Shown: positions 6,886 through 64,000 of the stretch, in pieces | How positions within the stretch are numbered: the stretch's first letter is position 1 | How the letters are laid out: every line of letters begins with the position of its first letter | Origin: Cetorhinus maximus | Taxonomy: Eukaryota | Length of the DNA stretch: 64,000 nt | Assembly: GCF_964194155.1 (NCBI RefSeq) | Contig: NC_135915.1 | Span: 1,612,001-1,676,000, forward strand | Direction: 5' to 3' | Translations under genes and position numbers: made by a program | The notes under the pieces: generated by a model | Seen by the model: the letters and a program-made list of their open reading frames with translations, nothing else | Told to the model about the DNA's origin: nothing | Database searches by the model: none

Positions 6886-7214
6886 GCTTTTGATATCTGA
6901 AATCTTTCAACAGGATACGACTAAAACTATCTCACACCACAATTTGTGAGATAAGGGCGGATATAGTGTGGGGAATGGTGAGTAAATCTGTTGTGCAGCA
7001 AGAATGGTTCTTCATGTTGTTGAGTTTAGAAGCTGAAGTTCATGTTTGAAGACATTTCCTCCTGCCTCTGCCATTTACTCCTGCCTCTGCCAACTGAACT
7101 GGGCTTTGGGAAGAGGGAGACTGTGCTTGATGTCATTTCACCTCCTAACTGCGATGTGCCGCTCTAAACTTCCCCTGGCCCTCCTGTGTCTCGCTGGTCC
7201 TCCCAGTGTTAACT

Positions 7215-25599: not shown

Positions 25600-26575
25600 A
25601 TTTCTTTCATTCCAGTTACTGACCCGCACTCAGTTCAATTCTACACCGACAAAAGCTCCCAGTTATACATTATCACTTGAAGCAGGTATTCCACTCTGGA
25701 CACTGACCTACGCTCAATGCAGTTCTGCACTGCCAGATATAACCAATAATAAATGTTGACTGAGGTCAGCTATTCCACTCTGGTAACTTAACAACACTTA
25801 GTACATTTTGAAACCATCAGATACAGTCAGTGAAAGAGTGGTGACTGGGGCCAGGTATTCCACTCTGATTAATGACCCAGACACAGTACAATTCTACACT
25901 GAGAAATAGACCCAATAATAAATGTTGACTGGGGTCAGCTGTTGCACTCTGGTTACTAAAGAACACTTAGTACAATTTGACACCATCAGATAAAATCAGT
26001 GAAAGAGTGGTGACTGGGGCCAGGTATTCCACTCTGATTAATGACCCAGACACAGTACAATTCTACACTGACAGATAGACCCAATAATACATGATCACTG
26101 AGGCCAGGTATTCCACTTTGGTTACTCATCCACACTTAGTAAAATTTGAAATTAACAGTTAGACCCAGAAATATATGGTCACGGGAGCCAAGTATTCCTC
26201 TCTGGATACTAATGCACACTCGGGACAATTTGACACTAACAAATAATGTCAGTGAAAGAGTGGTGACTGGAGTCATATATTCCACTCTGGTTATTAACCC
26301 AAACTTAGGACAGTTTGACACTAACAGATGCAGTCAGTGAATGAGTGTTGACTGGGGCCAGATATTCCACTCTGATTAATGACCCAAACTCAGTGCAATT
26401 CTACATTGACAGAAAGACCCTGTAATACATGGTCACTGGTGCCATGTATTCCAATTTGGTTACTGATGCACACTCAGTACAATTCTACACTGGCAGATAG
26501 ACCCAATAATACATGGTCACTGGGGCCAGGTATTCCACTCTGTTTACTGACCCACACTCTTGGAGATTTTCCTCT
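25600..26575. repeat. 84/85-bp intronic tandem repeat, ~11-12 copies, two unit subtypes
   Basis: TATTCC-type anchor at 25687, 25771, 25856, 25940, 26025, 26109, 26193, 26278, 26363, 26447 and 26531. Confidence 0.9.
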
Positions 26576-26883: not shown

Positions 26884-26947
26884 CAGGAACACCTATTACG
26901 GCATGGATTGTTTAGAATATTTTCTCAGCCACAAAAATTGGTTCCAT
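26884..26947 (-). pseudogene. Exon 1 of GPCR gene 1 (N-terminus and most of TM1) with an in-frame stop
   Basis: ATG GAA CCA ATT TTT GTG GCT GAG AAA ATA TTC TAA ACA ATC CAT GCC GTA ATA GGT GTT CCT G|GTGAGT. The phase matches the exon-2 acceptor. Confidence 0.8.
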
Positions 26948-27035: not shown

Positions 27036-27041
27036 TTTATA
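27036..27041 (-). promoter_or_regulatory. Candidate TATA box of GPCR gene 1
   Basis: TATAAA on the minus strand ~90 bp upstream of the exon-1 ATG. Confidence 0.45.
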
Positions 27042-29687
27042 TCCTGTGGGATCACCTCAGGGACGTTGAAATTGCAACATCGTTCAAATCATGTTTTAAA
27101 AATTGAACAAAGAGATTATGACATTGAGCTGAGTGAAACAATATATTTGTATGTAAATGGAGCTGCGAGGTTCCAAAGACTGGACTTTACTTATCAAATT
27201 AATTAACTATTAAACAAACAGGAGCTGTATTCACCCGGATAATATGCTGTCTACTCAAACACCATCAGTCCCATTTCTAGATTCCCTATTGTTTCAGTGA
27301 TATCCGTCACTTGACTGTTACCATTTATGGTTTAAATAAAAAAATGTTAGAGCTCCTCTTTTCACACTGTTCTATTACACCCTGGGATTTAGCTGTCCTG
27401 TTTTAGAATTGACATTCAGTTGTGCGATTACAGCGGGTTTAGGGTGTCAATTTACGACTAAATTCAAACAATTAAGTTATCAGGAAATATTTAAAATCTC
27501 CCAAAAATTCAGTCCACACCTCAATCAAATGCGTATCTATCTCACGATCTCTCTCTCTCTTCCCATCTATTTGTGTCTCTTTTTCTCTGCACGTTTCTCT
27601 CTCTCACTCCTTCTGTGTTTCTCTCTTTTCCCCTTTGTCACTCTTGCACTCTTTATCTCTCTCTCTCTCTGCTTTTTTTTCGCTCACTGTCTCCCCCATT
27701 CTCTTGTTCTTCCACTCTGTTTATCTCTCTCTGGCTCTCGCTCTCCCTTTGTCTGCTTCTCTCCCTCTCACTTCCCCACTCTCGCTTTCTCTCCCATTCA
27801 CTCTCTCTCTCTCCCTTTCTCTCTCAATCCATCTGTTTCCCTCTCTCACTATCTCTGCCTCTTTCCTTCTCTCTCTGACTCTCTTTGCTTCTCTCTCCAT
27901 ATTTCTCGGTCTTACTCTCTGATTTTTTTCATCTTTCTCTTCCCTCTCGCTCTCTTTGTGTGAATGTGTGTGTGTCCGTTCGTGTGCATATGTATGTGTG
28001 TGTGTTGGTGGGTGTCTCTCTCTCTCTCGCGTTTCTCATGCTCTTTCAATCTGTGTATGTGTATCTATGTCTGTATTTCTGCCTCTCTCGATCTCCTTCT
28101 CTGAAACTCTCCTATCTGCCTATCTGTCAGTCTGTCTATATATCTATCTTTCTTTCTTTCTATGTATGTATCTATCTATGTATCTATTTATCTATCTATC
28201 TCCGTGTTTTTGTCGCTCTCTGACACTCTATCACACTCTGCCTCCCTCCACCTCTCTCTCGCATATTTTCTCGGTTTTTCTAACTCTTTCTCTCTATGCT
28301 TCTCTCGCTCTGGCTCTATCTCTCACACTTCCCTTCTCGTTGTATCGCTCCTGCTGGCTCTTCCTCTTCCTCTTTCTTCTATCTGTCTCTCTATCCCCAT
28401 CTTTCTCTCCATCTCTCCCTCTGCGTGCCAATCTCTCTTCGCCTCCCTCCCTCGGCCTCCTTCTCAGTCTCTCTCCCTTTGTCTCTCTGTTCTCTTTGTT
28501 ACTTTCACTTTCTGTTTCTCTCTCTTTCTCGCTTGCTAAACTTCCCTTTGTCTGTTTCATTGCCTGTCTCTATCTCTCTGCCTCTCCTTCTCTGCCTCTG
28601 CTTATCTGTCCCTCTCTATTTCCCTTTCTTTCTCTCTCTCACTTTCTCTCTCACTTTCGCTCCCTCTCTCCCTCTCTCTATCTCTCTGTCTCTCTCTAAC
28701 ACTGTGTGGCTCACTCTGCCACTCTTTTTGCTTCTCTCTGTCTTTTCTCTCCCCTTCTCCTTTTCAGTGCCTATCTGTCTCTCTCCTTCGCTCTCTCCCT
28801 GTGTCACTCTCGCTGTTTATCTAATTCTCACTCTCTCTCTTCCTGCCTATGACCCCCACCCTTTCTCTTTCTCTCTCGACCTATGCAAGACACCTCTCAT
28901 TCTCTTCTCTCTCTGTGAATATCTCTCACTATGTCCCTCTGTCTCATTCTCTCTCTCTCTGTCTCACTCTCACACTTTATTTCTAACTCCGTTTCTCTTT
29001 TTGCCTCTCTCTCTCTCTTTTCTCTCCTCCTCTCTCTCTTTCAATGTTTCTCCTCTCTCTCGCTCTCTCTCTCTCTATCCCTCACTCTCTCCCCCTTCCC
29101 TCTCTCTTTCTCTCTGGCTGTGTCTCTAAATCTCACTCCCCCCGTCTCCCTCTGTCCCCCTTACACGGTTCATTCCCGCCTGTCTCTCAATTCGCTTTCT
29201 CTCACTATCTCTATTCCCCGCTTTCTCTATCTCTCTCTCTCTCCCTCTCTCTTTCTCTCTCGCCCTATGACACACAATCTGCTTCCCTCCTTTTCCCTCT
29301 TTCAATGACTCATTCATTCTGTCTCTCTGTCTGCCTCTCTCTCTCTCTGTCTCTGCCACACCCTCTCTTTCGCTCCAAGCAATTCTCTTTTTTTCTCCCC
29401 TTTCATCGCCCTCTCTCTCTCAATCCTCTCCCTCTCTATTTCTGTGTGGTTACCTACGATTATATGTGTACGGGCTTTTCTATCTGTATCCTCTCCAGCT
29501 CACAATTGAAAATTATATATTTTTCCCTTTCTATCCATTTCTTTCTCCCTCTCTTTCACCCTCTCTCGCTCTGAGTGTGTGTATGTGTGTCCTTGGATAT
29601 CAATCTCTCTTCCACACGTTTCTCTGTCTCTTTCAACCTGTGCATGTATCTCTGTCTGTCTTTCTGCCTCTCTTGCTATCCTTGCCA

Positions 29688-29913
29688 NNNNNNNNNNNNN
29701 NNNNNNNNNNNNNNNNNNNNNNNNNNNNNNNNNNNNNNNNNNNNNNNNNNNNNNNNNNNNNNNNNNNNNNNNNNNNNNNNNNNNNNNNNNNNNNNNNNNN
29801 NNNNNNNNNNNNNNNNNNNNNNNNNNNNNNNNNNNNNNNNNNNNNNNNNNNNNNNNNNNNNNNNNNNNNNNNNNNNNNNNNNNNNNNNNNNNNNNNNNNN
29901 NNNNNNNNNNNNN
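29688..29913. other. Assembly gap (N run)
   Basis: Ns in the sequence. Confidence 1.
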
Positions 29914-32509
29914 ATTTGTTTGTCTGTCTATCTACTTATCTACCCATCTCTGTCCATTTGTATCTCTGCCTTCTCCCTCTCTCACTCTCTCCCTCTCTCT
30001 TTCTACCACTCTATCATTCTCTGTCTCTCTCCCCCTCTAGCACACTCTCTCAGTTTGCCTGACTCTCCCCCCTCTCTCTCTCTGTTCCCCTCTCAGTTTC
30101 ACTGTGTTTCTCTCTCACTCTTTCCCTCTACATTCTATGGCTCTTGCTGTCTCTTCCTGTTCCTCTTTTCTCTCTCTATGTATCTCTCTCTCCTGCTCTT
30201 CCTCTCTGTGCTTATATCTTTCTGTCTCTATCTGCCTCACTCACTCGTGCTCCTTCTGAGTCTATCTCAATCTTTGCCTCTCTCTTCCCATTCCCTCTTC
30301 CACTTTTGCATCCTTGCTCTTTCTCTATTGCTACACTTTCCTTTGTCTAATTCAATGTCTCTCTCTATCTGTCTACCTCTTCTTCTCTGCCTCTGCCTGT
30401 TTGTCTCTCGCTCTCTCATTCCCTTTCTTTCTCTCTCTCATCTCTCACTTTCTTTCTCACTTTCTCTCTCAATCTCTCTCTCTCTCTCTCACTCCAACTT
30501 TCTCTCTGCAGCTAGCGCTCATGTTGCCTCTCTGTCTCATTCTTCCTCAGGTTCTCTGTCTGACCGCTATATCTGCCTCTCTCTCTATCTCTCTCTCTCT
30601 CTATCTATCTCTCTCTCCCTCTCTCTCTCTCCATCTCTCGGCCTCTCTTGCTGTGTCTCCAACTTTCAATCTATCATACTCCCTCTGTCCCCCTCTCTCA
30701 GTGCGCTTCTTCCTCTCTCTTTATTCTCTCTCTCTCACTCACTTTCTCTCTTTTTCACTTTCTCGCCCTATATCATGCACTCTGCTTCTCTCCTTCTCCA
30801 TCTTTCACTCTCTCATTCTCTCTGCTTCTCTCTCTCTCTCTGCCTTACCCTTTCTCTCCGAGCAACTCCCTGTTTTGCACCCTTTCGATTGCCCTTTCTC
30901 TCTCTGCCCTCTCCCACTTTTTTGGTGTGTGTGCCGACATGTTTATTTGTACGTGCCTCTCTCATTCTGTTCTCTACCTCTCACAATATACTTTCCTTTA
31001 TCTCTTTCTCCCCATCTCTCCACCTATTCTGTGTGTGCGTATATGTGTGTGTCTGTGTGTGCATGTGTCTGTATGTGTGTGTGGTGTGTTTGTGTGTGTG
31101 TGTGTGTGTGTGTCGGTGGGTCTCTATCACTCTCCCTCACGTTTTTCTGTCTCTCAATCTGTGTGTATCTCTGTGTGTTATTCGGCTTCTCTTGCTTCCC
31201 TTATCGGTCCCTCTCCCTCCTTCTGCCTTTATGTCTGCCTGTCTGTCTGTATATCTATCTATCAATCTGTCTATCTAACTTGCTTTCTGTCTATCTGTCT
31301 ATCTATCCATCCATCCATCTGTCTATCTATCTATCTGTCTATCGATCTATCTGTCATTCTCTATCCATTTTGCTATCTAGCTATCTGTCTGTCTGCCTGC
31401 CTATCTGTCTTTCTATGTCTTTTTGTATTTCTGTCTCACCCTCTCTCCCTCTCTATTTCTCTCCACCTCTCACACACTCTCTGTTTTTGTCTGCCTGTCT
31501 CTCTCTCTCTCTCTCTCTCGCTCTCCCTCTTTGTTACGCTCTCTGTGTCTCTATCTTTCACTCTTCCCTTGTCACTCTCTGGCGCTCGCTGTCGCTTTCT
31601 CTTCCACTTTACTCTCTTACCTTCTCTACCTCCCTCTCTTTCTCTCTATCTCTCCCTCTGCATGCGTTTTTCTGCATCACTCTCCTGCCCTCCTCAGTCT
31701 CTCTCTCTGTGTCTTTCTTTTCTCCTTCCCTCCTTCATTCTCACTTTCTCTCTCTTTCTCGCTTGCTAAACTCCCCTCTGTCTATTTCATGGTCTCACGG
31801 TCTCTTTCTCTCCCTCTCTATCTGCCACTTCTTCTCTGCCTCTGCCTGTCTGCGTGCCGCTCCCTCTCTGCTTCCCTTTATTTCTCTCTCACTTCCTCTG
31901 TCAAATGGTACATCGCTCTGTCTCTATCTCTCTCTCTGCGTCTATCTCTCCCTCTGTCTCTTTTTCTCATTTTCGCTCTGTCTCTCTCTGTCTGCCTCGC
32001 TCTCTTGCTTTATCTCGAACTGAACTTCGCTCTTTGCAATCCCCCTCCCTCTTTTTAAATCTCTCTCTCTCTTTCTCTCTCTCTCTTTCTCACTCTTTCT
32101 CTCTCTCTGTGTCCCCCTCACTGTGTCTCTACATCGCACTCCCTCCTTCTCCCTCACTCTGGCGTTTCCCCCTCTCTATCTATTCTCTTTCTCACACTCT
32201 CTCTCTCTCTCCCTCTCTCCAGCTCTTTCTCTCTCGGCCTATGTCACACACTCTGTCTCTCTCCTTCTGCCTCTCTCCTTCTGCCTCTTTTAATCTCTCA
32301 TTCTCTCTGCCTGTCTGTCTCTCTCGCTCTATCTATCTGCCTCACCCTTTATTTCTCTCCCAGCAATTCTCTCCTTTTCTCCATTTTGATCGCACTATCT
32401 CTCTCTCTCTCTCTTTCTGTGTCGGTGTCTACGTTTGTGTGTGTACATGTTTCTCTCTCTGCGCCCCTGCCTCTCACCATCTAAAATTTCCTTTGTCTAT
32501 ATTTCTACA

Positions 32510-32544
<35 letters not shown>

Positions 32545-32665
32545 GTGAGTGTGTGTTTGTGTGTCTGTGGGTCTCTCTCTCTCTCTCTCAAGTTCCTCTC
32601 TTTCTTTCAATCCGTGTTTTTGTATCTCTGTCTGCCTTTCCGCGTCTCTTGCTCTCCTTCTCCGT

Positions 32666-32816
32666 NNNNNNNNNNNNNNNNNNNNNNNNNNNNNNNNNNN
32701 NNNNNNNNNNNNNNNNNNNNNNNNNNNNNNNNNNNNNNNNNNNNNNNNNNNNNNNNNNNNNNNNNNNNNNNNNNNNNNNNNNNNNNNNNNNNNNNNNNNN
32801 NNNNNNNNNNNNNNNN
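32666..32816. other. Assembly gap (N run)
   Basis: Ns in the sequence. Confidence 1.
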
Positions 32817-34968
32817 TTTCTATCTATCCATCTACCTATGTATCCATCTATCTATCTATCCATCTGTCTATCTATCCATCTGTCTGTCTCTCCGCCTATC
32901 TACCGACTTATGTAACGATCTCTGTGTTTTTCTACCTCTGCCATCTCCCTCTCTCCCTCTTTCTCTGTGGCACTCCGTCTCTCTGTGTCTCTCCCTTATT
33001 CTCGCACACTCTCTCTGTTTGTAAGTCTGCCTGGCTCTCTCTCTATCTCTCTATGCCTCTCTCTGTGTCTCTAGCTCTCATTCGTTCTTTCTCGCTCTAT
33101 TGCTCTAACTATCTCTTTCTCTTCCTCGTTTCTATCTCTATGCCTCCCTCTCCCTTTCTTTCTCTCTACATCTCCCTCTGCGTATCTAAGCCCTGTCTCT
33201 TTCTGCATTACTCTCTCACCCTCCTTCTCAGTATATCTCTCTCTTTGTCCCTCTATTCTGTTTTCCTCTTTCACTCTCGTTTTCTTTCTCTTTTGGTTTG
33301 ATAAACTTCCATTTGTCTATTTCAGTCTATCTCTCTCTCTTTTTGTGCGTGTTCTTCTCTGCCTATCCCTGTCGAATTTTATTTCGTTCTCTCCTTCCCT
33401 TTCTTTCTCTCTCTCACTATTTCTCACTATTCTCTATCTCTCTCACTCTCCAAATCTCTCTCTGCGCCTATCTCTCACATTGTCTCTCTGTCTCATTCTC
33501 TCCCAGCCTCTGTCTCGCACTGTGTGCCTAACTTTGTCTCTGTCTCTTTGCCTTTCTCTCTTTTTTCTCTCTCTCTGTCCCTTCTTCTTTGCAACTCCCT
33601 GTGTGTTGTCTCTCAATATCTCCTTCCCTTTCTTTCCCTCTCTCACTCTCTCCCTCATTTTCTCTCAACCTCTTCACTCTCCAACTCTCTCTCTCTGCGT
33701 CGACCTCTCACTTTTCCTCTGTATCTTTCTCTCTCGGCCTCTGTTTCACACTGTGTGCCTAACTCTGTCTCTATCTTTGCCCCTCTCTCTTTTTTATCTT
33801 TCTCTCTTTCTTTCTCCCTCTCTCTCTCTCTCTCCCGATGTCATACACTCAGTTTCCCTTCTTCTCCCTCTTTCACTTTCCCATTCTCTCTGCCTGTCCC
33901 TCTGTCACTCTCTCTCTCTTTCCCTCTCTTTCTCTCTCTGCCTCACCCTCTCTTTCCTTCCCAGCAATTCACTCTTTTTCTCCCTTTCGACCGTTCTCTC
34001 ACTTCATTCCTCTCTCGTTCTTTGTGTGGTTATCCCTTTGTTTACGTGTTTCTCTCTCCCTGACTCTGCCTCTCACAATCTAAAATTCCCTTTGTATCTT
34101 TCTCTCTGTTTATCTCTGTCCCTCTCTGTTTCTCTTCCTCTCTCTCTCTCCTTTTATGTCTCAATCTGTCTCTCTGTTATTCTGCCTCATTCTCTCTCTC
34201 TCTCTCTTTCCCCGTCTCTCTCTCGCTCTTTGTGTCAAACTCTCTCTCCTCCTGTCTCTCTCTCTTTTCTCCCCCTTCTCTTTATCAATATCTCTTACTC
34301 TCTCTATTTATTTCTCTTTGTCACACCCACATTCTCTACCTTCTTCTCCCTCTTTCGCTATTTCATTCTCTCTGCCTGCCTTTCTTTTTCTCTCTGCCTT
34401 TCTCTATCTCTTGCTCCCTCTCTGCGTGTCCCTCTCGCTGTGTCTCTTAGTCTAAGTTACTCTTTATCACTCTGCATCCCTCTCTCAGTCCCTTTCCACC
34501 TCCTTATTCTCTGCCTCGCTCCACAACCCTGTATCTCTCCTTCTCCCTCTTTCTCGCAATCTCCTTCTCTCTGCTTATTTTCCCTCTGCCTATTCCTCTG
34601 TCTGCATTTCTGCCCATCTCTCCCTCACTCTCTACATTTATCTATCATTCTATATCTGTCTCTCTCTTTCTCCCCTCTCCCTCTGTGCCAATGCCTCTGC
34701 CCACCCTCTAACTCTCTGTCCCTTTCTGTCGTTGCCCATCACACCATCCCCCCACCCTCTCCCTCATTTTCTCTCATTCTCTCTTTGTGTGATCGTTTCT
34801 CCCTCAATCTGTCTCTCTCTGCCTCTCTTGGTTTCTCTCTCCCTCCCATTCTCAATCTTTCTGTATGTTTGTGTGTGTGTATGTGTTTCTCCCTCCCTCT
34901 CTCTCTGTCTTTCTGCCTCTCTGTCTCCACATCTCACTTTCGCTCTTTCTCTCTGGCTCTCTTTCTAC

Positions 34969-35004
<36 letters not shown>

Positions 35005-35509
35005 CCAGATTTCTCTGCTTCTGCACCACTATCGGTTTCTCTGTTTCTCTCCCTGTCTCTCCCCGTCTCACTGTCGCCTTCCTCTGCCTCTCACTCTCTG
35101 TCTCCCTCTTTCAGTCTTTCTGTTTGTGTCTCTCTTTCTCCCCGCCTCATTCACAATCTACCTCTATGTCTGCCTCTCCCTTTCTTTGTCTCATTCTCTC
35201 CCCTCTCTTTCTCTGCTTGTGTATGTGTGTTTGTGTGTGTGTGTGTGTGTGTGTCGACGTCTCGCACTTTCTCTACGTATCTCCCTCTCTCTCACTCTTT
35301 TTGCAATCTCTCTATTCCTCTCCTTTCTCTCCACCTCCCTCTCTGTTTCACGCTTTACTCGCCTTCTGTCTCTCCCTGTCTCTCCCCCTCTCTGCCATGC
35401 TATCACTATCTCTGGCTCTCTCTAACCCTCCCACTGTATTTTTTTCTCTCTCTATTATTGACTTTCTCCCGCCATCTCTTTTGCTATCTGCCCTTCTCTT
35501 TCTCTCTAT

Positions 35510-40877: not shown

Positions 40878-41745
40878 TTACTTAATGAATTGAAGAATTA
40901 TAGTAAACGGATATTTCAGCACATTTTTGGTCTCTGATCTTAGTAGGGGGTCATGGCATACACCGCAGTGCCTGTGCAGGAACGCAGCAGGTTCTGCATG
41001 AAGGCCATATCCTGAACAAAAGAATGCAGAAGCACAGAATAATACCCCAAAATTTTCATCCTGCCCCACTTAGAATAAATAATTAACATTGCCCATAACA
41101 GGAAGAAATTTGCCAACATAAGAAACAGTAAAATTGATTGATTTCCTTAGACTCCCCATCTCTGCAACTCTCGCCACTGCTGTGAGCCTACAGTCTCATG
41201 TGGGCTGTCTTGGTCACTAAAATGTGTATGACAGTGAAAACGTTGAGCAGCAGTATCAGGTCAACGGCACACCCGGGGTTAGAATGTTGTGGAGGCATTC
41301 GACTGTGGTCCAACGCGGAGATTCCAGAACTTAAATTTTTAACCCAACAAACCAAGGGGTGTTCAAATGCTGATACCCACCCGTTAAAATAATAGACCAG
41401 AATATGTTATTTATACAGTTCATCACAGCCACAGTTCCCAGCATCACAGCTGCTGTTTTCTAATTGGCATATTTATCTTTCAGCTTCTGGCAACAAATTG
41501 GTGAAAGGTGAAGGTTAAGGCAGAACAGTCAGCGGCTGTAGAAAACAGGATGGAACGGGTGTTACACAGGGGGATGGACTTCAGGAAATAAAACTGTTCC
41601 CAATAAACAGTCGGAATGTCTCTCAATATCAGGCCGAATATAACGACCAGTAGATCCGCCACTGACATGACCATTAGTAAACAAGTGAGACATTTGGAGA
41701 GACCACAACTTTTGCACTTGTGGATCACAATCGTGAACGTGTTAA
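40878..41745 (-). pseudogene. Exon 2 of a second GPR139/GPR142-like GPCR, decayed
   Basis: NTFTIVIHKCKSCGLSKCLTCLLMVMSVADLLVVIF...AADCS..TFTFHQFVA, KTAAVMLGTV and NVLKYPFTIILQFIK*. Several frameshifts. The acceptor is mutated to CTGACCG|TT. Confidence 0.85.
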
Positions 41746-42399
41746 CGGTCAGGAATGGAAATACACAATGGCATTTTACATCAGGCTGGGGCCAACGTTA
41801 CCAGCTTGATCAAAAGTTATTGATAGGTGCTCCAGAACCCTGTGATGTATTGTGATAAATGGACATGAAAGAACTAATGAGATGTTTCTTTGATACAATG
41901 GGATGAAGCAAAGAGTAAATAACAAGAACTGGTCGCAGACAGGCGACGCAGAAATGACAGGGGCAACATATGTGATGGTGCTAACCAGCAGTGACAGGGT
42001 ATCGGGGTTAACCGTGGTGATGGGTGAAGTGAGTAGTGATGGGGGAACATGGGTGGACAGGAGCCAGGCGTGATAGATGTGTTACAGATAGAGGAGAAAT
42101 TGGGAATAATTTCTCCTTAGATCCTGTTCTCTATTGAAGTTTCCTGAGCAGGAATGCTTTAACCACTTCAGTGCTGTATTTATTTAATGAAAAACAGTCG
42201 GGCGATGTTACCCGAAGCAGAAATAGGCCATCTTAGTGATAGTGTGAATGTATGACACCAATTTTGGAATAGTCTGGTTCAGCCTGAAACAGTTACCGGG
42301 AGAGGGATGGAATTGGGGGACAGGGTTTGGGGTGGGGATTTAAAACAAATATCCAACCTACCCAATATTTTATTTGAATGAAAGAGGTTTCAGATATGT

Positions 42400-44108: not shown

Positions 44109-47100
44109 GTGCTCTTCTCCACCGATGCTGCCAGACCTGCTGAGTTTTGCCAGGTATTTCTGTTTCTCTTTTTGTTTTGGATTTCCAGCATCCAGCTTTT
44201 TGTTTTTATCTCTGTGTTTAATTGACTGCCAACTCTCTTCAAGAAATGCCTACCTTGAAGAGGTTTTGCCCAACCCTCCGTCAGGATTTTTCGTATCTCT
44301 CTTTTGCCTTGTTCACCTTCATTGCTTTCCATTTCTCTCCTGGTGTTTCGCAAGGTGTTTACTAAAACCCGCTTTCACAGCCACATTTCCTTTCTCATTG
44401 ACTGTCTCCATCTCCAGCTTAACCCATGTGGATTTCAACTGAAATTCCATCCTTTATATTTGAACCCCCCCAGGATTACAGGTATCTCCGGGACATACAA
44501 CGTTCCTCGGATTGCTGTTCCCGTCGCATTCTGAGATCCACACTCAGTGCCATGCGCTGCCATATGAACACACTAGACCTCTCCCTCCAGCAGCACAACC
44601 GCACCATTTTTCAAAGCTGCGTGTGCCCCCAGTTTCATTTTATTCTTCGTCTCATCCAACGCCTCAACAAGAAACCTTTTCTCTTTCTCTCAAGTGCTAA
44701 GGAACGCAAGCTCCAACAACTCATCGACACCAACACCCATCCAGGACCCTCCACCCCTGGCTGTCCCTCTGTCCCCATCCCATCTTCCAATCCCAGCCCA
44801 GGCCATGTAATCACCATACCCCCTGACCTTCCCCTCTCCGACGCTGAACGTTCAGTGCTCAGCAAAGGACATGGTTTCATACCTTACGCCCTCATCTCAA
44901 TGAATTTTGGGCTTGGCACGATGCTGAACTCATCTTCCGCCGCCTTCATCTCCGTGCTCATTTCTTTGGGCAGGAGTCCTCTCCCCGTTCAATGGATCCT
45001 TTTACCCACCTCAAATATTCTCCCTCCACCTGGACCCCTCCCTCTGGATTCTTACCTTCTCTTGATCTTTTCATTGAGAACTGTCGGTGTGACATTAGTC
45101 ATCTCAATTTCTCTGCTTCTATCACCCACTCTAACCTGTCTCTCTCTGAACTTACTGCACTCTGTTCTCTCAGGTCCAACCCTAACATTGTCATCAAACT
45201 CGCTAACAAGGGTGGTGCTGTTGTTGCCTGGTGCACTGACCTCTACCTTGCAGAGGCTGAGCGTCAACTTGCAGACACTTCCTCCTACCTCTCCTTGGAC
45301 CATGACCCCACCACTGAACATCAAGCCATTGTTTCCAGGACTGTCACTGACCTCATCTCCTCTGGAGATCTTCCTTCCACAGCTTCCAACCTGATAGTCG
45401 CCCAACAATGGACGGCCCGCTTCTACTTCCTACCCAAAATCTACAAACAGGACTGTCCTCGCAGACCGATCGTGTCAGCCTGTTCCTGCCCCACGGTACT
45501 CATTTCTCGTTATCTTGACTCCCTCCTCTCTCCCCTTGTCCAGCCCCTTCCCACCTACATCCGTGATTCCTCTGACACCTTACGTCACATCAACAATTTC
45601 AGTTCCCTGGCCCCAACCACCTCCTCTTCACCATGGACGTCCAATCCCTCTACACCTCCATCCCCCACCGGGATGGTTTGGTGGCTTTCCGCTTCTTCCT
45701 CGAACAGAGGCCCGAACAATCCCCATCCACCAGTACTCTCCTCCATCTGGCTGAACTTGTTCTCACACTGAACAATTTCTCCTTTAACTCCTCTCACTTC
45801 CTCCAAATAAAAGGTGCAGCTATGGGTACCCGCATGGGCCCCAGCTATACCTGTCTCATTATGGGGCATGTGGAACATTCCTTGTTCCAGTCCTTCTCCA
45901 CCCTTCCAACAACTCTTTCTCCACTACATCGATGATAATTTCTTTGCAGCTTAATGCTCTCGTCGGGACCTGGAAACATTTATTAATTTTGCTTCCAATT
46001 TCCACCCCTCCATCATTTTCATGTGGTCCATCTCTGACAATTCCCTTCCCTTCCTTGAGCTCTCTGTCTCAATTTCTGGTGATAGACTGTACACCAATAT
46101 CTATTACAAGCCGACTGACTACCACAACTACCTCGGCTTCAGCTCCTCACACCCCGCTTCCTGTAAGGACTCCATCCTATTCTCTCAGTTCCTTCTCCTC
46201 TGTCACATCTGTTCTGATGATGCTTTTTCAAAAACAGTTCCTCTGACATGTCCTCCTTCTTTCTTAACCTAGGTTTTCCACCCACGGTAGTTGACAGGGC
46301 CCTCAACCGTGTCCGGCCCATCTCCGGCGCATCTGCCCTCATGCCTTCTCCTCCCTCCCAGAAACATGATGGAGTCCCCCTTGTCATCACTTAAAACCCC
46401 ACCAGCCTCCGCATTCAAAGGATCATCCACCACCATTTCAGCCAAATCCAGCATGATGCCACCACCAAACACATCTTCCCTTCACACCCCCGACAGCATT
46501 CCGTAAGGGTCGTTCCCTCCGTGACACCCTGGTCCACTCCTCCATCACCCCCTACTCCTCAACCCCCTCCCACGGCACCTTCCCATGCAGCCGCAGAAGA
46601 TGCAACACCTGCCCCTTGTCTTGCCCTTTCCTAACCGTCCAAGGGCCCAAACAGTCCTTTCAAGTGAAGCAGCATTTCATTTGCACTTCCCTTAACTTAG
46701 TCTACTGCATTCGTTGCTCCCAATGCGGCTTCCTCTACATTGGAGAGATCAAACGCAGACTGGGTGACCGCATCGCAGAACACCTTTGGTCCGTCCACAA
46801 CCATTGCCCAGACCTCCCTGTCGCTTGCTATTTCAGCACTCCACCCTGCCCACATGTCTGTCCTTGGTTGCTGCATTGTTCCAGTGAAACTCAACGCAAA
46901 CTGGAGGAACAGCACCTTATGTTCCGACTAGGCACTTTACAGCCTTCCGGACAGAATATTGAGTTCAACAATTTTAGATCATGAAATCCCTCCTCCATCC
47001 CCACCCCCTTTCCGTTTTTTCCCCCTCCTTTTTGTTTTTTCCAATAATTTATATAGATTTTTCTTTTCCCACCTATTTCCATTATTTTTAAATGTATTTC

Positions 47101-49676: not shown

Positions 49677-49869
49677 CAGGGACGTTAACAATTGCGAAGA
49701 TGGAACAGTAAAAGTGTTGAGTCAACTTAAGTCCATAAAAGTTCCGAGATTCCAATGTAATACAAGGAGAATCATAAGACACATTTATAAACCAATAGGA
49801 TAGATCTCTATTCTTATTAGCAAAAAAGAAATGTATTGTCCTTAGATTCGGATCTCTCCTCATCCTCAT
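49677..49869 (-). pseudogene. Exon 1 of GPCR gene 2 (longer N-terminus + TM1)
   Basis: MRMRRDPNLRT...LKLTQHFYCSIFAIVNVP G|GTAAAT. Same TM1 ending (A.xGVP/NVP + G|GT, phase 1) as gene 1, and it joins exon 2 in frame. The start codon is uncertain. Confidence 0.7.
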
Positions 49870-51204
49870 CTCTTGACCCGCTGATTCCTGTGACGGAGAT
49901 GATGTTCCCGTTGCCACTATGGTATAACACAATGTAATGAGTTCAGCATTAGTAGCTGAGCGGAAGCCTCCAGTCACACAATTATTCTCCATGGAGACTG
50001 CCATTAATTAAGTCACTGAACAAACAGCTTCAGTTCACCGCTTTCAAACCTGTTTTTTCACAAAGAAGCCGACCATTTGCCAGGCCTGTGCGTTATGTAA
50101 TGATGTTGCTGAGGCAAGGTAGGTAAATATAATCGAGACACTGACTACTGTCTTTTCTTCACACAAGAATATCACAGTAGTGCCAGAGGACTGAAGGGTT
50201 GTAAATCGTACATGCTATTATTTAAAGATAGAGACGGAGAGAGAGAAAGAAAGAGAGAAGTAATTCATGTAACTACAAGTGGGTCAATAAAATAGTGCTG
50301 ATGGGTCAATTTCTTGATGCTATCGTCTGGTTTTAAAAAATCATTATATGGGAGAAAAATCGATTAATATATGAAATGCAGGACACATATTTTGATGAAA
50401 CATCATATCCACTAAAATTGATTGAGGCCGCTGATGAAAAAATATAAACATTGATGAGGATAGTGTTGGTAATGTTAACTGTCTCGACTTCCAAAATCTA
50501 TTTGATCGTGTGCCGTTTAATTGTCTTGTTCTGCAATCTGAAAAGAGCGTATATGAACAATGCCAATGTGGATGTGACACAGGTCAAGTTTTAAAGATGC
50601 TTCAGAAAAATAGGGGGTGTACCTATGCAAGTATTGGAGATTGCAGATCGATTGATAAGATGGTTTATAAAATATATTTATTTTTATAAATGGGTGTATT
50701 AGACTGGGGTTTTCCTTTTGCCTCAGACAGGTCGATTCCAGCTGTTTCCCAAGGGTCCTCCTCGACTCTGAAAGTCAGCCCATTCCCGATTCAGGCTAGC
50801 TGTGATTCCTAACGTAGTTCAATAGAAACAGTCAGTCCATACCCGTAAAGGAATTAACATTGTAATCTTGATTCCAGTGTGAGACCAATTATCCTGTAAT
50901 GTCCAGATAGAGTTTCGCAAAAACAGGCCTGACAAAGCATAAACTGTTCTGGTATTAACGCTTTGGAATTCAAGATATTGGGGAGAGCAAACATTCTTGT
51001 TTTGCTCTCCCAAGACATTACAGCATGGGGACACTCTTTCCCATCAAACACATGCAGGGATATTGCAGCACAGGTTCGACACAGGTACGGATTCAGAGGT
51101 GGAAATGGATATTCTTAGTGATCGCCGTGATATGTGTGCTTCTCCTCAGATGCAATGGCAGTCCATGCCTAAATGCAACAAGGCCTGGGTCCTGTCAATG
51201 CCAG

Positions 51205-54865: not shown

Positions 54866-55714
54866 TCGAGTTATTGAACTTGCTTTCGCTGGCTCATTGA
54901 ATGATACAATAAGCGGCAATCTGCCTCCCTTCATTTTTCTACCTTATCAAATCTAATCCACTGCTGCATCATATTTCCCCTTGATCCAAAAAGTTTATCC
55001 TCTTAAAAGGACATGTAAAATGCAGTTCCTTCACATAGAATTCAGGTTTGGCCTTGTTCATCCAGGTAGGTGATCGTTCATGGGCGCAAACCTAGTTCAG
55101 AGCCCACACTTTTACACCACACGACTCCAAAGAGGGTGCAGAGCACAGTCTTCTTCATTTATTTTTCTACCTGTTCAATAAAATGTCAATTTCGCTCGAC
55201 TACAATATCCAGGATAAGTATTTCACAATTGAATCATTACCCCTGGCATTTATAAAACCTCAACTTACATTTCAGAACTCTGAATGCTATTGTCCTCTAG
55301 GTTCCGCATCTCATTGTTGGCATCTATTTCCCAATTTTTGAGGGAGTGGGGTTAATATCAGTGATCTGTGTGACTGTCTCTGTTGCATAATTACCATTGG
55401 CATATCCTGTTCTTCCATGGTACACCATTTCCTCATACTCACAACAATCCCGTCTGGAACACACTGGCAGAAAGGATGGTCCAGGCAGAAAGCCTCCTAA
55501 CATTTGCAGAACAAAAAAAAAGAAATGTTTTGGCGTTCACTTGAATTGCTGTTAAATCAGGACAACGAACAGAAAATTGAGATTAGGATGGACAACGTTA
55601 TCATTCAACAGAAACACTATGGGCCATATGTCACTCATCTGTGAATTCAAGTTTCTAACTCTCTATGTCTGTTGTAACGTTCCACTGACTGAACTGGACC
55701 TATCAGATTCAGCG

Positions 55715-58700
55715 TCACTGGGGAGTGTGTCAGTATTTAGAAAGAACACCTGGAGAATGTGTTAATATTTATAACTAAGACATGTTGATGTGCCAGTCAT
55801 TATAATGAAACCCTGTGGAGGATTACAACAGTTCTAATGAATCCCTCGGGTTTTGCAGGTGCGGGTTGGGGGAGAAAGCGGGCGGTGAGTGTTGGGCGGT
55901 GTGGAAGGGAGTTGGTGGCGGGGTGGTGATGTCAGTATAGATTATGCGTCCATGGGGAGTGTTTCAGTGTTTATGCTGGATCACTGCCTTGTGGGTCAGA
56001 ACCTTTACTGAATCCCTGGCTAGTGTTTTAATATTTACAGTGACCCATACATCGTGTTTCAGTATTTATATAACGAATCAATGGCGAGTGTGTTAGATTT
56101 TATTAATGGATCCCTGGCGAGCTTGTCAGTATTTAACATGAATCGCGGGGAGTGTGTCAGTGATTTTAATTTTTCCCTGAAGAGTGTGTCAGTATTAATA
56201 ATGAGTAATTGAGTAGTCCATCAGGTTATACAATGAATGTGTTTGGACATAACCTGTATTTATAATGAATCCTAGGTTAGTGTGTCAGCATTTATATTGA
56301 CTCCACGAATAATGTGTCAGTATTGGTAATTAATCCGTGGGGAGTGTGCCAGTAATTATAATGAATCCCTGGGGTGACTGACATAATTATAATGACTCAG
56401 TGTTTAGTTTATCAGTATTTATAATTGAACATTGGGATTTGATTCAGTATTCATAATGCATCTCTGGGGATTGTGGCATTGTTTACAATTAATCCTTGGC
56501 GAATGTGCTCGTATTGATAATGAATAGCTGGATATTGTGTCAGTGTTTATTGTTAATCCCTGGGGACTTTGTCAGTGTTGTTAAAGAATCGCTGGGAATT
56601 GTGTCTGTATTCATAATTAATAAATGGGGAAGGTGTCGCTATTGATAGTTATTCCCCGGGGATTGTGTCAGTAAATCTAACGAATTTATGGGGAGGTTCT
56701 CAGTATTTAACATGAAACCCTGAGGAGAATTTGTTATGAAAACTTGGGGATTGTGTAAGTATCCAGATTGAATCACTGCAGAGTTTTTCAGCATCCACAC
56801 GGAATTCCACCGGAACTCGTCAGTATTGATAATGATTCTGTGGGGAGTGTGTCAGTATTTAGTATGGATCCTTGGAGAGTGTGTCAGCATTTATAAAGGA
56901 TCCAAGGTTTGTATGGGGGCGTGACAGTATTTAAAATTAATTCGTAGACAGTGTGTCAGTATTGTTAATGAATCTGTGAAGAGTATTTTATTATTCAAAA
57001 CATATCTTTGGGGAGTGCATTAGAATTTATAATAAAACCCTGGGGAGTGTGTCAGTATTCAGACTGAATCACTGCAGACTTCATCAGCATTCACACGGAA
57101 TTCCCCGGAGCCCGTCCGTATTTATAATGAATCGGTGGGGAGTGTGTCAGTATCTATTATGGACGCCAGGGGAATGTGTCAGTATTGATAATGAAGCCAT
57201 GGGGAGTGCGTCAGTATTCATAATGGATCCTTGTGGAATCTGACAGGATTTGTAATGGATCCCTGGGAAGTGTGTCAGTATTTGCAATGAATCCACAGGG
57301 AGATTGCTATTTAGTCTTTACATCGGATCCCCGCAAAGTTTTTAAATATTGATAGTGAAACCAAGGTAACCGTGGCAGTAATTGTAATGAATCCCTGTTG
57401 AGTGTGTCAGTATTCATCAGGATTCTCTGGGACGTCTGTCAGTGTTTATAATGAATCCAGTGATGATTGTTAGTATTTCTGTTCAATCCCTGGCTATTGT
57501 TACTCTATTTATCACGAATTCCTGAGGATTGTGTCATTGTTTATACTGAATCCCTTGGGAGTGCGTGAGTGATTGTAAAAAATACCAGAGGTGTTTATCA
57601 TTATAAAGAACCCCCAGGGTCGTGTGCAAGTGTTTATAATAAAGACGAGGGAGTGTAGAGGGACGTGAGTATTACCAGAGAAACCTCGGACGGTGTGTCA
57701 GTGTTTCAACAGCATTCCTGTGGGTAGGGGGTGTGTTGGTGAAAGTGTTTAAAATGAATCCCTCTGGAAAGTGTCAGTATATTTAATGAATCCCTGGGTA
57801 GTGTGTCAATATTTATAATGAACCCCTGGAGAGTATGTTAATATTTACCATGAATCCCTGGGGAGTGTGTCATTTTTTAAAAGTATCCCCGGGAAGTGTC
57901 TGAGTATTTATAATGAAGCCTTCGGGTGCGTGTCAGCGAATATCATGAATCCCTGGGCTGTGTGTCAATATTTATAATGAACCCTGGGGGCTGCGTCATT
58001 ATGTCTAATGAATTCCTGAGGAATGTGCCAGTGTTTATAAAGAACCTCTGGAGAATGTGTCGTTATTTAACATTGATCCCTTGGGAGTATGCCAGGGTGC
58101 ATAATGAATCTCTAGGGAATGTGTCGCTATTTGTCATAAATCCCTGGGGAGTTTGCCAGTATGCATAATGAATCTCTGGGGAATGTGTTGCTATTTATCA
58201 TAAATCCCTGGGGAGTTTGCCAGTGTGCATAATGAATCTCTGGGGAATGTGTCGCTATTTATCATAAATCCCTGGGGAGTTTGCCAGTATGCATAATGAA
58301 TCTCTGGGGAACGTGAAGCTATTTATCAGTAATCCCTGGGGAGTTTGCCAGTGTGCATAATGAATCTCTGGGGAATGTGTCGATATTTATCATTAATCCC
58401 TGCCTACGTCAGTATTTGCACGATGCCGACACGAGTTTTGCCAGTATTTAGACGGGGCCACTGGAATTTATGTCACTGTTTACAGAGCATTTGTGATTTT
58501 GTGTGGCATTATAAACAGAATTTTACTTGGGAATATATCAGTATTAAGAGAGGGCCTTGTGTCAGAATCTATGGGGAACCCCCGGGGAATGTATGGGTGA
58601 TTGCAAATACTTATTGGGGAGTGTGTCAGTATTTGCAATCAATCTCTGGGGACTCGGCCACATTTGAAATGAATCCCTGAGCTGTGAGTAAGTAGTTGTG

Positions 58701-58760
58701 ACGAATACCTGGGGCGGTAGCCACTATCTGGCAGGTGTTCTTCTGGACGTTGTCAGCATT
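55715..58760. repeat. ~3-kb 32-bp tandem array (~90 units), consensus GTGTCAGTATTTATAATGAATCCCTGGGGAGT
   Basis: Recurrent TGTCAGTA, TAATGA and TCCCTGGGGA blocks. A 64-bp dimer sub-array has anchors at 58152, 58216, 58280 and 58344. Confidence 0.9.
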
Positions 58761-58849
58761 CAAAATGCTTCCCATGCAGTGTGGAACTACCCATTTAGCC
58801 GGCAAGCATTTTACAGGGGAACCACGTGGACTGCATCACTATTTACAGT

Positions 58850-61800
58850 GGACAGAATTTTCCACCACACTTGTCATCGGTTGTCATGGTGGCAGGGGCT
58901 CGTCAAACTAGCAACAAAGCGAAAACTTGGTTTTATGGTGAAATCAATTTGCGATCGTCCACTCTACCCGTCAATGGCTTTCCCTGGGTCCAATATCAGG
59001 AATCTAATTTCAATTTATGAGCATCTCATCATCTTTCCTGCTCGCCGGATTCTTCCAGACACACTGGGTTTGTTACCCACGTCAGCAGGAACAATGCCGG
59101 CCCCCAATATGTATTGACAGGTGTGATGTACAGAGGTCGGGACTTACTGTTAAAAGTCTGAACTGAGCATGAGGGCCTTGTTCATAACACGCACACCTGA
59201 GGAGAAGAAAATGCTCCAGCTCTACAGATACTGGACCCTGGAGGAGCACTTGCATTGTAGCAGGGAATGATTCTGATGGACATGGCTCTGCCACGCAGCC
59301 ACACAGGGAATGTGGGAGGTGTTCATTGATGCCTGCCTGCTGCTTTTGGATATCAAGTACCTGGAAAGGGGCTGCTTTGGATGATCGCCACGGGGTGTTT
59401 GGGGAAAGAGAGGAAGGTACAGCAGTGAGTTGGAAATGTTGGGATAATGGGCGAGTGGGTGGTGGGATGGAAGGTCTAGGTTTGTCTGGGAGAGGGAGGT
59501 GTTCAGGCGAGGAAAGGTTGGGATGGTGGGAACAAAGGTATCAGGGGGTGAGGTTGGGAGTGGGCAATCGATGTTGTCAGGGGGCGGGCGAGGTGCAGGT
59601 TATGAGGCGGGGAGGAAGTAAATGGTGAGGGGAGTTTAGTGGGGAAAATGTGGCAACTAACCAAGTAGGTACAAGGGGGTTGGAATGTATAAGCGAAATA
59701 GTTCACAGGGGGGAAGAATGTCTGATTGGAGAACGAATCTCGGGGGGAGGGCTTCGCAGGCGGGTAGGAATTCGTGAGGTGAATGCAGATCACAGGGGCG
59801 AAGTAGCCCGGGGGAGGAATGAGTCAGGGGGGAGGCGGGAGTATGGGTGGAGTAGGGAGTAAAGATCAAAAGGAAGTAAGAGAAGGAGATGGGGTGATTT
59901 CCAGGTGAACGTGCAAGGTAGCTGCCTGTGGAATCAATGACTCCCTCCTCTAGAGACAACAGAGTGTGGGTGGGCATGGCAAAAGGAATTGTGAGTAATG
60001 GGGTGGAAGGGGGGCGCGACGGGGGGCAGAGTGAGCCAGAAAGTTTGTAGACTGAGGATGAGATGGTAGAGGTAAAATTGATAGCGAGAGTGCATGGTTA
60101 CGGACTCAGAGTCAGACAAAGACCCTGGAGGTGGAAAGAAAGCGATTGGGGAGATCAATGTGGATCGGGGTGGGATTATCGGGGATGTAAGGAAAGTGCA
60201 TGTTAACCAGGAGATCCCGGAAAACAATGGTTTCTGTTTGGTCGGCGATGCTGATGATTTGGAAGGTGAAGCCAAGGACCTCAACAGTGATGGTGGAAAG
60301 GACATGGGTGTCTGGGGCAGGAATAACAACAGGGGAGCTGAAAGTAAGCCTTAGTCAGTCTATCGTTTTGAAATCAAATGTTTTAGGAACCTCTTGCTGG
60401 GCGGACACAGGTGCTGCACGGGAGTACGATCATTGGGTGGACGGAGATACAGTTCAGCTCAGATGGAAAACTGAAACCGCACCTGAACACGCAGCATTGA
60501 ACATTCTTGCGACATTGAGATGAGTGTGATAGAGGAAAGTTCTATTTGCGCGGGAGAAAGCTTGCACCAGGCTTCGAAATCCACTGCCAAACGCACACAC
60601 TTCTACCTCCAGTATCACTTGTGGTCTGGCTCTGTGCAGCTGAAATGCCAGTGGTTGGGGGAGGGGGTGTGTGGGCGGTGTTGGTGACGAGAGGGTGGTG
60701 CAATATGCATGAGGAAGACTCGAGAAGCCTGGAAATGCAGCTGAAAAAGTCTAGTGCAAATTACTCAGTGAAAGTGAATGTGTTTTTAGGTTATAATGGG
60801 TCAAAATGCGTCCAGCCATACAACCACGTGTGATGAAAAGTTATCCGTTTTTGTAGGCCTACCTCTTCTTCCAGGTGCTGCCCTGACATCCGCAGCAGAG
60901 TTCCAGGCAGCCAGTGTAAAGTTTGGCTCTGTTGCCTCTAGTGGATTCAGTGTGCATTACGCGTCCTCTAGAAAGGCGAGGTTATTAGGGCAAAGGCTTG
61001 CTTTGGTCATCATCATGCAGGCCAGCTGCTCCCGCTGCGCTGATTGGGAACAAAGCAGAGGAGCTTCACAGGCAAAGGAGACTCGAAGGGACAGGGCCAC
61101 TTCTGAGATTCCCGAGTGGCTGATGCTACCGTGTTCGCCTTGTTGCTCCTCCTCTTTTCAGAGGCCAAGGATCTCATATTGACTCCTTTAGGGTTATTAG
61201 AAACTGCGAGCACTTCGAAGAGCCCTGGTTCCTTCTCGTGTCACCACTGCAGGGTCTCACTCATGGCAACACCGATGGAGCACAGGTCTGCACAGATCTC
61301 TGCGTTCCGCAGGACCAGGGTCTCCATGTTCCTCCCTCCCTCCCATGGTCAGTATCAGGCACACACACGTGGGCACCATTTCATCAGAGAGATTGTGGAC
61401 GCACTCTTGTGACTTGTGTTCCAATCCGGTGAGGGCTTTGAACAGCTCTGTGCGATGTTCCCCAGCCTTCTGCTGGACTGCCACGATGAGTTGGAAGGCA
61501 AAATCCAGAGGGTCATACTCTGACTCTGAGCTCCAAAATGTCTCTTCCCCAGCCATCCTGCAAGTGCCGTGAGCTCGGCTGAACCATCCTCCTCCTGCTG
61601 CGGACATGTGTCCGTGTGGTGACGACTAGAAAGTGATCTGAGCCCGCCTAGACCTATATCTCACCGGGACCTGTGACTCTGCACTGATGGAGGGTGTGAG
61701 TACACGCTGTGATGGATCTTCCAGACTGCTTATTTCCAGCTCTTCAATGGAGGAGTTATCCTCTTCGCCGGAGGGGAGGAAATGGATGGAGCTGAGCGAC

Positions 61801-62240: not shown

Positions 62241-62562
62241 TACAAAAGTACAGCACAGCAACAGGCCCTTCGGCCCTCCAAGCCTGCGCTGATCAAATTG
62301 CCCGTCAACTAAAACGTTTTTCACTTCTGTGGTCCGTATCCCTCTATTCCCATCCTATTCATGTATTTGTCAAGCTGCCTCTTAAACACCAGTATCGTAC
62401 GTGCTTCCACCACCTCCTCTGGCATCGAATTCCAGACACTCACTACCCTCTGCGTAACAAACGTGCCCCGCACATCTCCTCTATAGTTTTCTCCTCTCAC
62501 CTTAAATCTATGTCCCATACTAATTGACTCTTCCACCCTGGGAAAAAGCTTCTAACTATCTA
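62241..62562 (-). mobile_element. CR1 LINE 3' end
   Basis: ORF 62321-62536 GHRFKVRGENYRGDVRGTFVTQRVVSVWNSMPEEVVEA; tail hairpin GGGCCGAAGGGCC. Confidence 0.85.
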
Positions 62563-62921
62563 AGAGATAGAGAGAGAGAGAGAAACACAGAGACATTGAG
62601 AGAGACAGTGAGAGAGATAAAGAAAGGCAAACAGACAGGAGAGGCAGAGGAGAAGAGGCAGAGAGAGAGAGAGAGACCATGATATAGACAAAGGCTATTT
62701 TAGCAGGTGAGAAAGAGTGCTAAAGCGAGAGGGGAAGAGGGAAATAGAGCAAAGATGAAATGAGAGATAGTGTGAGAAAGAGAGTGAGAGAGTGAGGCTT
62801 AGAGAGAGCAAGATAAAAAGAGGGAGAGAGAGAGACATAAAGAGAGTAAAGAGGAAGATACAATAAGAGCCATTGAGCGAGAAGGAAATAATGAGAGCTA
62901 GAGACATAGTGAGAGAGAGTC

Positions 62922-62958
<37 letters not shown>

Positions 62959-64000
62959 TAGACAGACAAACGGATAGTGTGCGAGAGGGGGAGAGTGACA
63001 CAGAGAGAATTAGAGAGGCAGAGAGAGAGGGCGATCGAAAGCGATAAATAAAGAGGGTTGCTGGGCGAGAAGCAGAAAGTGAGGCAGAGAGAGAAATAGA
63101 GAGAGACAGGCAGAGAGAATGAGTGATTGAAAGAGTGAGAAGTTGAGAGGCAGAGTGTCTGACAGGGCGAGAGAGAAAGGGAGAGAGAGAGAGAGAGACA
63201 GTTAGTGAGAGGAGGAGAATGAAGTCAGAGGGGCTTAAATGCCCCGATTGAGGGAGGCAGAGGGAGATGGAGAGAGTGAGATTTAGAGACACAGTGAGAG
63301 CGACACAGAGAGAGAGGAAGAAAGAGGGAGAGTGAGGTAGAGTAAATTTGGAAATGAGAGAGAGGGAGAGAAAAGAGAGAGAGAGAGACCAAAGAGAGAG
63401 ATATATTTAGACAAACAGCGCGAGAGCAAGACAGAGAGAGACAGAGACAGAGAGTGAATGAGGCAGAGAGACAAAGTGAGAGATGGATGCAGAGGGAGAG
63501 TTAGGATGGGAGGGAGAAACTGAGAAAGAGAAAGAAAGGGAAACAGGGGGGGAGGGACACACAGACAGGCTGAGGCAGAGAAGAAGTGGCAGAGGGAGAG
63601 AAAGGGAGACCTCGAAATAGACAAAGGGAAGATTAGCAAATGAGAAAGAGAGAGAGAACGAAAGAGGGAAAAATAAAAAAGAGACAAGGAAAGAGAGAAA
63701 CTATTTGATACGCAGGGGGAGAGAGAGAGAAAGAGAGAGAGGGAGAGAGACAGAATGAGGGAATAAACCGGTAGAGAAAGAGGCAGCGAGAGCCATAGAG
63801 CAACAAGAAAAGACTGAGAGATAGAGTCACAGAGAGAGAGGCATAGAGAGAGAGAGAGAGACAGGCAGACAGACAAAGAGAGAGAGTGCTTGGGAGGGGG
63901 ATAGAGATAGAGAGAGATAGAGAGAGGCAGATATATAAAAATACAGAGTTAAATAATCAGATAGATAGATCGATAGATAGATAGATTGATTGATAGATAT
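62563..64000. repeat. GA-rich composite microsatellite; inverted copy of the 27540-35510 unit
   Basis: Reverse-complement anchors GACAAAGGGAAGATTAGCAA (~63620) and GAGTGTCTGACAGGGCGAGAG (~63152); ends in (GATA)n. Confidence 0.8.

Follow-up and report, generated by a model that had tools for sequence, protein, structure and literature searches.

In mouse, the olfactory receptor (OR) enhancers known as Greek Islands are elements of approximately 0.4 kb each that contain 0–4 strong composite sites, and Lipsi, the strongest of these islands, carries four (PMC5608512, supplement 2). The composite EMSA probe for the island Sfaktiria is given as TAATTG-A-TCTCCAAGGA (PMC5608512, supplement 7), and in the Ebf half of the composite, pyrimidine and purine stretches are described as tolerated if their spacing is fixed (PMC5608512). 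Multimerised homeodomain sites have been reported to increase both receptor choice and the expression of linked genes (10.1101/2022.05.05.489571). In catshark, olfactory sensory neurons (OSNs) are reported not to express ORs, and ciliated OSNs are reported to be absent (PMC10116579). Simple tandem repeats are reported to be enriched on small shark chromosomes and at chromosome ends (10.1101/2022.10.17.512540). A search of titles and the opening parts of abstracts outside subscription journals found neither a published description of the 32-bp repeat family considered below nor one of an expansion of GPR139-like receptors in sharks.

The window analyzed here is a 64,000-nucleotide stretch of the Cetorhinus maximus genome (contig NC_135915.1, hereafter C38; C38:1,612,001–1,676,000), and coordinates without a contig name refer to this window. 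A first-pass annotation had proposed that a 32-bp tandem array in it, said to carry homeodomain and EBF motifs about 90 times, is a satellite-built enhancer of the Greek Island type for a neighboring receptor cluster. The array itself was confirmed by TRF (rows at 56,054–58,402) and by an iterated profile, which delimited a 32-bp-period tandem repeat at 55,709–58,850 on the plus strand, with 81 recognized units in approximately 95 unit lengths. The consensus unit is TAATGAATCCCTGGGGAGTGTGTCAGTATTTA, and the mean identity of the units to this consensus is 0.75, so that the array is a degenerate minisatellite, which we call the TAATGA subtype. The orientation and 1-bp spacer of the Lhx2/Ebf-like composite in the consensus are those of the Sfaktiria probe (PMC5608512). 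The copy number of the motifs did not hold up. Between 55,715 and 58,760, TAATGA occurred 23 times, TCCCNNGGGA nine times and TGTCAG 25 times, while the exact composite TAATGAATCCCTGGGGA was not found in this interval. The strict composite, TAATGA-N-TCYCNNGGGA, occurred five times in the same interval (58,102, 58,166, 58,230, 58,294 and 58,358), always inside a young, recently re-amplified 64-bp dimer block (58,071–58,400, plus strand), the copy number of which differs between paralogs. The earlier claim described the consensus rather than individual units. Composites were scored by pattern; the permissive pattern TAAT-N3-Y4-N2-R4 occurred 10 times on the plus strand of the array versus 0.18 in 500 base shuffles. 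Random DNA would yield far fewer such sites, but their number is what decay of the array consensus gives. The 3′ tail of the array (58,405–58,850, plus strand) looks oldest, and an old paralog at C38:3.98 Mb can be aligned with it.

The array lies approximately 6 kb 5′ of exon 1 of gene 2 on the minus strand, as the first-pass annotation had stated, with the donor GT at 49,676–49,675. In gene 2 (49,677–50,060, minus strand), a conserved upstream block with TAATTA and a palindrome-like CTCCATGGA is followed by the exon 1 remnant, which ends at this donor; the identity of exon 1 was confirmed by homology with paralogous first exons. The GPR139-like exon 2 of gene 2 (40,881–41,758, minus strand) is interrupted by frameshifts and stops. 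Gene 1 is also on the minus strand. Its exon 1 (26,884–26,947) is interrupted at codon 12 by an in-frame TAA, and its exon 2 (15,254–16,197) has an open frame of the 7tm_1 type that belongs to the family annotated in sharks as "probable GPR139". The core promoter of gene 1 (27,036–27,081) combines GATGTTGCAA with two O/E-like elements of the pyrimidine/purine type, and its TATA box stands 94 bp before the ATG. Both of the nearest genes within the window are broken: gene 2 is a frameshifted pseudogene, and the first exon of gene 1 carries a stop. The closest gene that appears intact is on the plus strand outside the window, its promoter lying approximately 12.5 kb 3′ of the array.

These receptors belong to class A (7tm_1), their shark and ray relatives are annotated as "probable GPR139", and their best PDB match is GPR139 (7VUG, 9M42; E = 3e-9). 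A search for receptor exons, in which 123 of 5,344 candidates were scored, placed approximately 76 of the 123 on C38, and further GPR139-like clusters are present on C20–C24, C29, C34, C36, C37 and other contigs. The flanking receptors are members of a large, clustered birth-and-death family with pseudogenes. Relatives of exon 2 were detected in contigs of three presumed RNA runs, from other organisms and without tissue labels, and GPR139 was mentioned zero times in the main text of a catshark organ-transcriptome paper.

Different satellites recur alongside GPR139-like genes. Intron 1 of gene 1 opens with an 84-bp tandem repeat (25,615–26,559), which is found also after exon 1 of gene 3 and of other paralogs, and which contains no composite or EBF sites. 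A distinct 32-bp tandem repeat of approximately 14 copies with 82% matches is located 3′ of gene 1 (10,206–10,676), and the promoters of genes 1 and 3 are directly preceded by kilobases of TC/GA microsatellite-like DNA (27,700–35,300 and 62,560–64,000). On C118 (209.5–211.1 kb), an unrelated 18-bp array of approximately 90 copies is located just upstream of a GPR139-like promoter. The window also contains decayed, reverse-transcriptase-like retroelement fragments (44,423–46,984, 7,209–7,572 and 1,379–1,813, the last with an RVT_1 match).

The first-pass annotation had proposed to test, in an alignment of units, whether the motif positions are more conserved than the rest. In each of four tests they decayed as fast as the background or faster, an outcome that the annotation itself had named as speaking against its enhancer. 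Among the 81 units of the window, column identity was 0.714 for TAATGA and 0.727 for the EBF-informative positions versus 0.765 for the rest (paired p = 0.051, in the direction opposite to constraint), and the corresponding values for 41 units of a second array, on C36, were 0.724, 0.686 and 0.745. Permissive composites were present in 10 of the 81 units, compared with 12.2 expected in a simulation of neutral decay (P(≥10) = 0.82), and the transition bias of the EBF columns was that of the other columns (p = 0.77). When 13 paralogous copies, which are not independent of each other, were compared over the array part 55,709–57,870, leaving out the dimer block, variants per site amounted to 0.110 (199/1807) in the array, and to 0.108 (227/2100) and 0.088 (97/1100) in the flanks of the same copies. 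At intact sites the values were 0.095 for TAATGA (8/84) and 0.113 for EBF (9/80), and 11 composite-disrupting changes were observed among the paralogs versus 8.1 expected; these site-level tests are limited in power because each copy contains 5–12 redundant sites. The old paralog at C38:3.98 Mb, which retains just seven units, matched the array tail at 74.9% identity and the adjoining flank at 74.6%.

Through recent segmental duplications, the C38 array has come to be present in 13 assembled copies, which may include redundant unplaced scaffolds. Their flanks are 92–96% identical and collinear, and the C38 copies were accordingly counted as one origin. Among 22 close paralogs of the gene 2 promoter, the array was present in 13, and the remaining nine carried no array within 10 kb. 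The nine stop matching the window at a breakpoint at 50,648, and they include the closest paralog (97%), which is without any unit within 10 kb. In the manner of a VNTR, the array has gained and lost units and has been truncated internally; in three copies, a truncation at 57,791 has removed the composite-rich dimer block. The 32-bp unit was detected at none of 38 promoter loci of GPR139-like genes, and in none of four intergenic stretches (72.6 kb in total) of the C22, C24, C29 and C118 clusters. Most receptor genes are without such an array. Another candidate, a conserved element with a composite that lies between the divergent genes of pairs on C22 and C118, was rejected because it belongs to a common interspersed repeat that is present at non-receptor loci as well. 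This interspersed repeat carries a composite-shaped site, TAAT-N3-Y4-N2-R4, in many copies.

The parent 32-bp minisatellite is dispersed genome-wide, with 4,363 exact matches to a common 20-mer versus 0 for a control. Its usual unit is CAGGGGG-TCCCCGGGGA, in which the EBF-like palindrome is already present, and EBF sites per unit reach 0.90 in common-type arrays versus 0.11 in the window array, which is surpassed in such sites by most arrays of the parent satellite. Units starting with TAAT numbered four of 3,025 in 21 stretches of common-type arrays. No receptor exon was found in 16 common-type stretches of 10 kb, a weak test of short reach. The TAATGA subtype has a different distribution. 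Searches of this one genome, which scored the best 40 candidates and may miss weak arrays on unplaced contigs, placed 28 of 30 exact composite matches on C38 or linked scaffolds, and 34 of 40 matches to a subtype 20-mer in C38-type arrays or in a single array at C36:6.33 Mb. A looser pattern on C1–C37 gave 31 isolated matches and four in the C36 array, among the 100 of 187 matches listed. Nine pattern matches outside the subtype arrays were checked: six were without an array, two lay in common-type arrays and one was a C38 remnant. Among the matches listed, the subtype thus occurs only in GPR139-like clusters, namely in the C38 duplication family and in one C36 array. The association with GPR139-like clusters that the first-pass annotation had suggested therefore survives for the TAATGA subtype, among these matches, and fails for the dispersed parent satellite.

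The C36 array (C36:6,329,500–6,333,200) is also located among GPR139-like genes and grades through common, GAGGGTG-type and TAATGA-type units, which indicates that the subtype was derived by ordinary unit turnover. Both TAATGA lineages have the same layout, with an opposite-strand gene 5′ and a same-strand gene 3′ of the array. The flanks of the C36 and C38 arrays have only LINE-like repeats in common, no unique flank homology between them was found, and a comparison of C36 and window units revealed no outstanding diagonal (mean shared variants 0.85, best 1.15–1.36). Common descent of the two arrays is accordingly a supposition. The receptor coding DNA of the C36 and C38 clusters is 72% identical, a divergence at which neutral flanks may no longer align.

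The enhancer reading of the array is thus divided. The array and its motif geometry are real, and the subtype occurs only in GPR139-like clusters among the matches listed; constraint is absent from the tests described above, most genes are without an array, and enhancer function is unsupported. Because the motif letters decay no more slowly than the neighboring DNA, we consider that the array is probably a neutral passenger, an old, decaying minisatellite copied along with receptor cluster DNA. Under this interpretation, the seven bases before the palindrome would have drifted to TAATGAA in an ancestral array within a GPR139-like cluster, and slippage or unequal crossover would have amplified this variant, the composite geometry being an accidental product of drift and amplification. 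An old duplication of cluster DNA, suggested by the shared six-base variant and the layout, may have given rise to the C36 and C38 arrays. Recent duplications on C38 have since multiplied the array, which has accumulated substitutions at the flank rate and changed in length, and its association with the receptors would be one of inheritance with duplicated cluster DNA. Three observations count against the passenger reading: the location of both lineages in GPR139-like clusters with a common layout, the exact agreement with the geometry of a validated composite, and the fact that the sole recently amplified block is the one with the best composites. An origin of the unit from a receptor promoter, suggested by a 12-base match (GGGAGTGTGTCA) in gene 3, was rejected because most paralogs have GAATGTATC at that position.

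Regulatory sequence of a more conventional kind was found at the promoters of the family. A set of 32 gene-1-type promoters, from C16, C20, C22, C23, C36, C38 and unplaced contigs, shares GATGTTGCAA, TCCC..(T/G)GGAG, TCCCACAGGG and TATAAA approximately 95 bp before the ATG, and this core promoter is conserved across at least six chromosomes. A Y3-4-N2-R4 element is kept in 21 of the 32. GATGTTGCAA may resemble a C/EBP site, and other promoter elements of the family are presumptive EBF or homeodomain sites. Over the 26 bases that precede TATA, mean column identity was 0.80, compared with 0.81 for the 5′ UTR and 0.68 for sequence further upstream. The O/E-like sites are thus not distinct from the UTR, and all of these values are inflated because the promoters were picked by similarity. 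Gene-2-type promoters have in common a block with TAATTA and CTCCATGGA that is 74–78% identical across contigs. In the window (49,830–50,060, minus strand), the promoter of this clade contains TAATTAATG, CTCCATGGA and an inverted CAGTGAC/GTCACTG pair, and it occurs also on C24, C29 and unplaced contigs. An in-frame tandem repeat of 42 bp, present in up to 10 copies, lies in gene-2-type exon 1 on C24 (29.60 Mb), C29 and C321, where it would encode a variable N-terminal repeat of 14 residues. The conserved TATA promoters are a better regulatory lead than the array, and gene-specific control most likely resides in these TATA-proximal sequences.

An alternative to the passenger reading that we regard as unlikely is that the repeat is neutral and yet regulates incidentally: neuronal factors of the Lhx2/Ebf type would bind its approximately 10 surviving composite-shaped sites and, without selection on the array, bias expression of the nearby plus-strand receptor subfamily. 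In favor of this alternative are the 10 permissive sites, compared with 0.18 by chance; the strongest mouse island, Lipsi, has four strong composites (PMC5608512, supplement 2), and homeodomain multimers raise receptor choice and linked-gene expression (10.1101/2022.05.05.489571). Each of the seven C38 arrays is located 25.6–29.4 kb from a same-strand receptor exon 2, which is consistent with such an influence. The candidate sites are, however, scattered over 3 kb of G-rich satellite, and satellites of this kind are often silenced; the ordinary interspersed repeat mentioned above supplies composite-shaped sites as well.

A selected, satellite-built enhancer of the Greek Island type, serving a chondrichthyan chemoreceptor repertoire as originally proposed, appears very unlikely. 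The exact geometry of the composite, the confinement of the subtype to GPR139-like clusters on two chromosomes among the matches listed, the presence of composites in the youngest amplification, and family promoters with O/E-like and, in part, TAATTA elements are in line with this proposal. Against it, constraint was seen in no test, the sampled stretches of the C22, C24, C29 and C118 clusters are without the array, the neighboring gene 2 is dead, and three copies have lost the composite-rich block. Moreover, the extended H-type site AACTTTTTAATGA is absent from the unit, real islands are single elements of approximately 0.4 kb (PMC5608512), and catshark is reported to be without ciliated OSNs and OR expression (PMC10116579). 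The same low probability is assigned to a narrower version, in which a dispersed minisatellite bearing an EBF palindrome gained a homeodomain site at the exact Greek Island spacing, was amplified into a multimer of composites and was co-opted as a redundant enhancer that raises the choice of a single receptor clade; redundancy among its sites would hide constraint on any one of them. The least probable reading, a structural role in which unequal exchange promoted by the array, or heterochromatin nucleated on it, would help to remodel or silence the cluster, can draw on the indels and truncations inside the array in several paralogs (55,870, 56,727, 57,791, 58,274 and 58,405), but other breakpoints lie outside it (50,648, 60,869 and 61,009), C38 has only seven arrays and one remnant for approximately 76 receptor exons (hand count), and internal instability is normal for any VNTR.

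If the array is a passenger, it calls for caution, because a consensus can mimic a famous enhancer geometry within receptor clusters without a sign of selection; the array also marks the duplication history of the cluster. If it were active, this naturally occurring multimer of motifs would illustrate a route from tandem repeats to receptor-choice enhancers, and co-option would mean that an OR-type choice logic had been assembled from junk repeats in a lineage without OR expression in the nose. The family-wide conserved promoters offer a cheaper entry to where GPR139-like receptors are expressed.

Like the Greek Islands, the shark array is intergenic within a receptor gene cluster and combines a TAAT-type site, across a 1-bp spacer, with an EBF-like site of pyrimidines and purines, in the orientation of the Sfaktiria probe. 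The islands, however, are elements of approximately 0.4 kb defined by ATAC and ChIP (PMC5608512), whereas the array is a 3-kb tandem repeat known from its sequence; conservation is seen at the functional sites of H, P and J, whereas the motif positions of the array are at background. The islands are located in OR clusters and are common to most of them, while the array stands beside a minority of GPR139-like genes. They were also defined in ciliated, OR-expressing neurons, which catshark noses are reported to be without (PMC10116579). The array resembles the H-element homeodomain multimers in its tandem copies of a TAATGA-containing unit (10.1101/2022.05.05.489571; PMC7804114). Those multimers are x21 transgenes of engineered, identical copies of the extended AACTTTTTAATGA (10.1101/2022.05.05.489571; PMC7804114), whereas the array keeps TAATGA at 23 places, without the 5′ extension of that site. 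Among solved structures, GPR139 is the nearest relative of the flanking receptors and is likewise of class A (7tm_1), but the match is distant, and the shark family comprises clustered genes and pseudogenes of two exons that number in the hundreds. The closest likeness is to the dispersed vertebrate minisatellites or VNTRs, with which the array has in common a 32-bp unit in head-to-tail order, kilobase-scale arrays at many loci on many chromosomes, array-specific unit variants, a higher-order dimer, changes in copy number, decay at the background rate and carriage in segmental duplications. It differs from them in that the AT-rich 7-base segment of the subtype creates a putative homeodomain site, and in that the subtype occurs in clusters of one gene family only, among the matches listed. 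As a whole, the array is a dispersed minisatellite carried in segmental duplications, which is a known kind of element.
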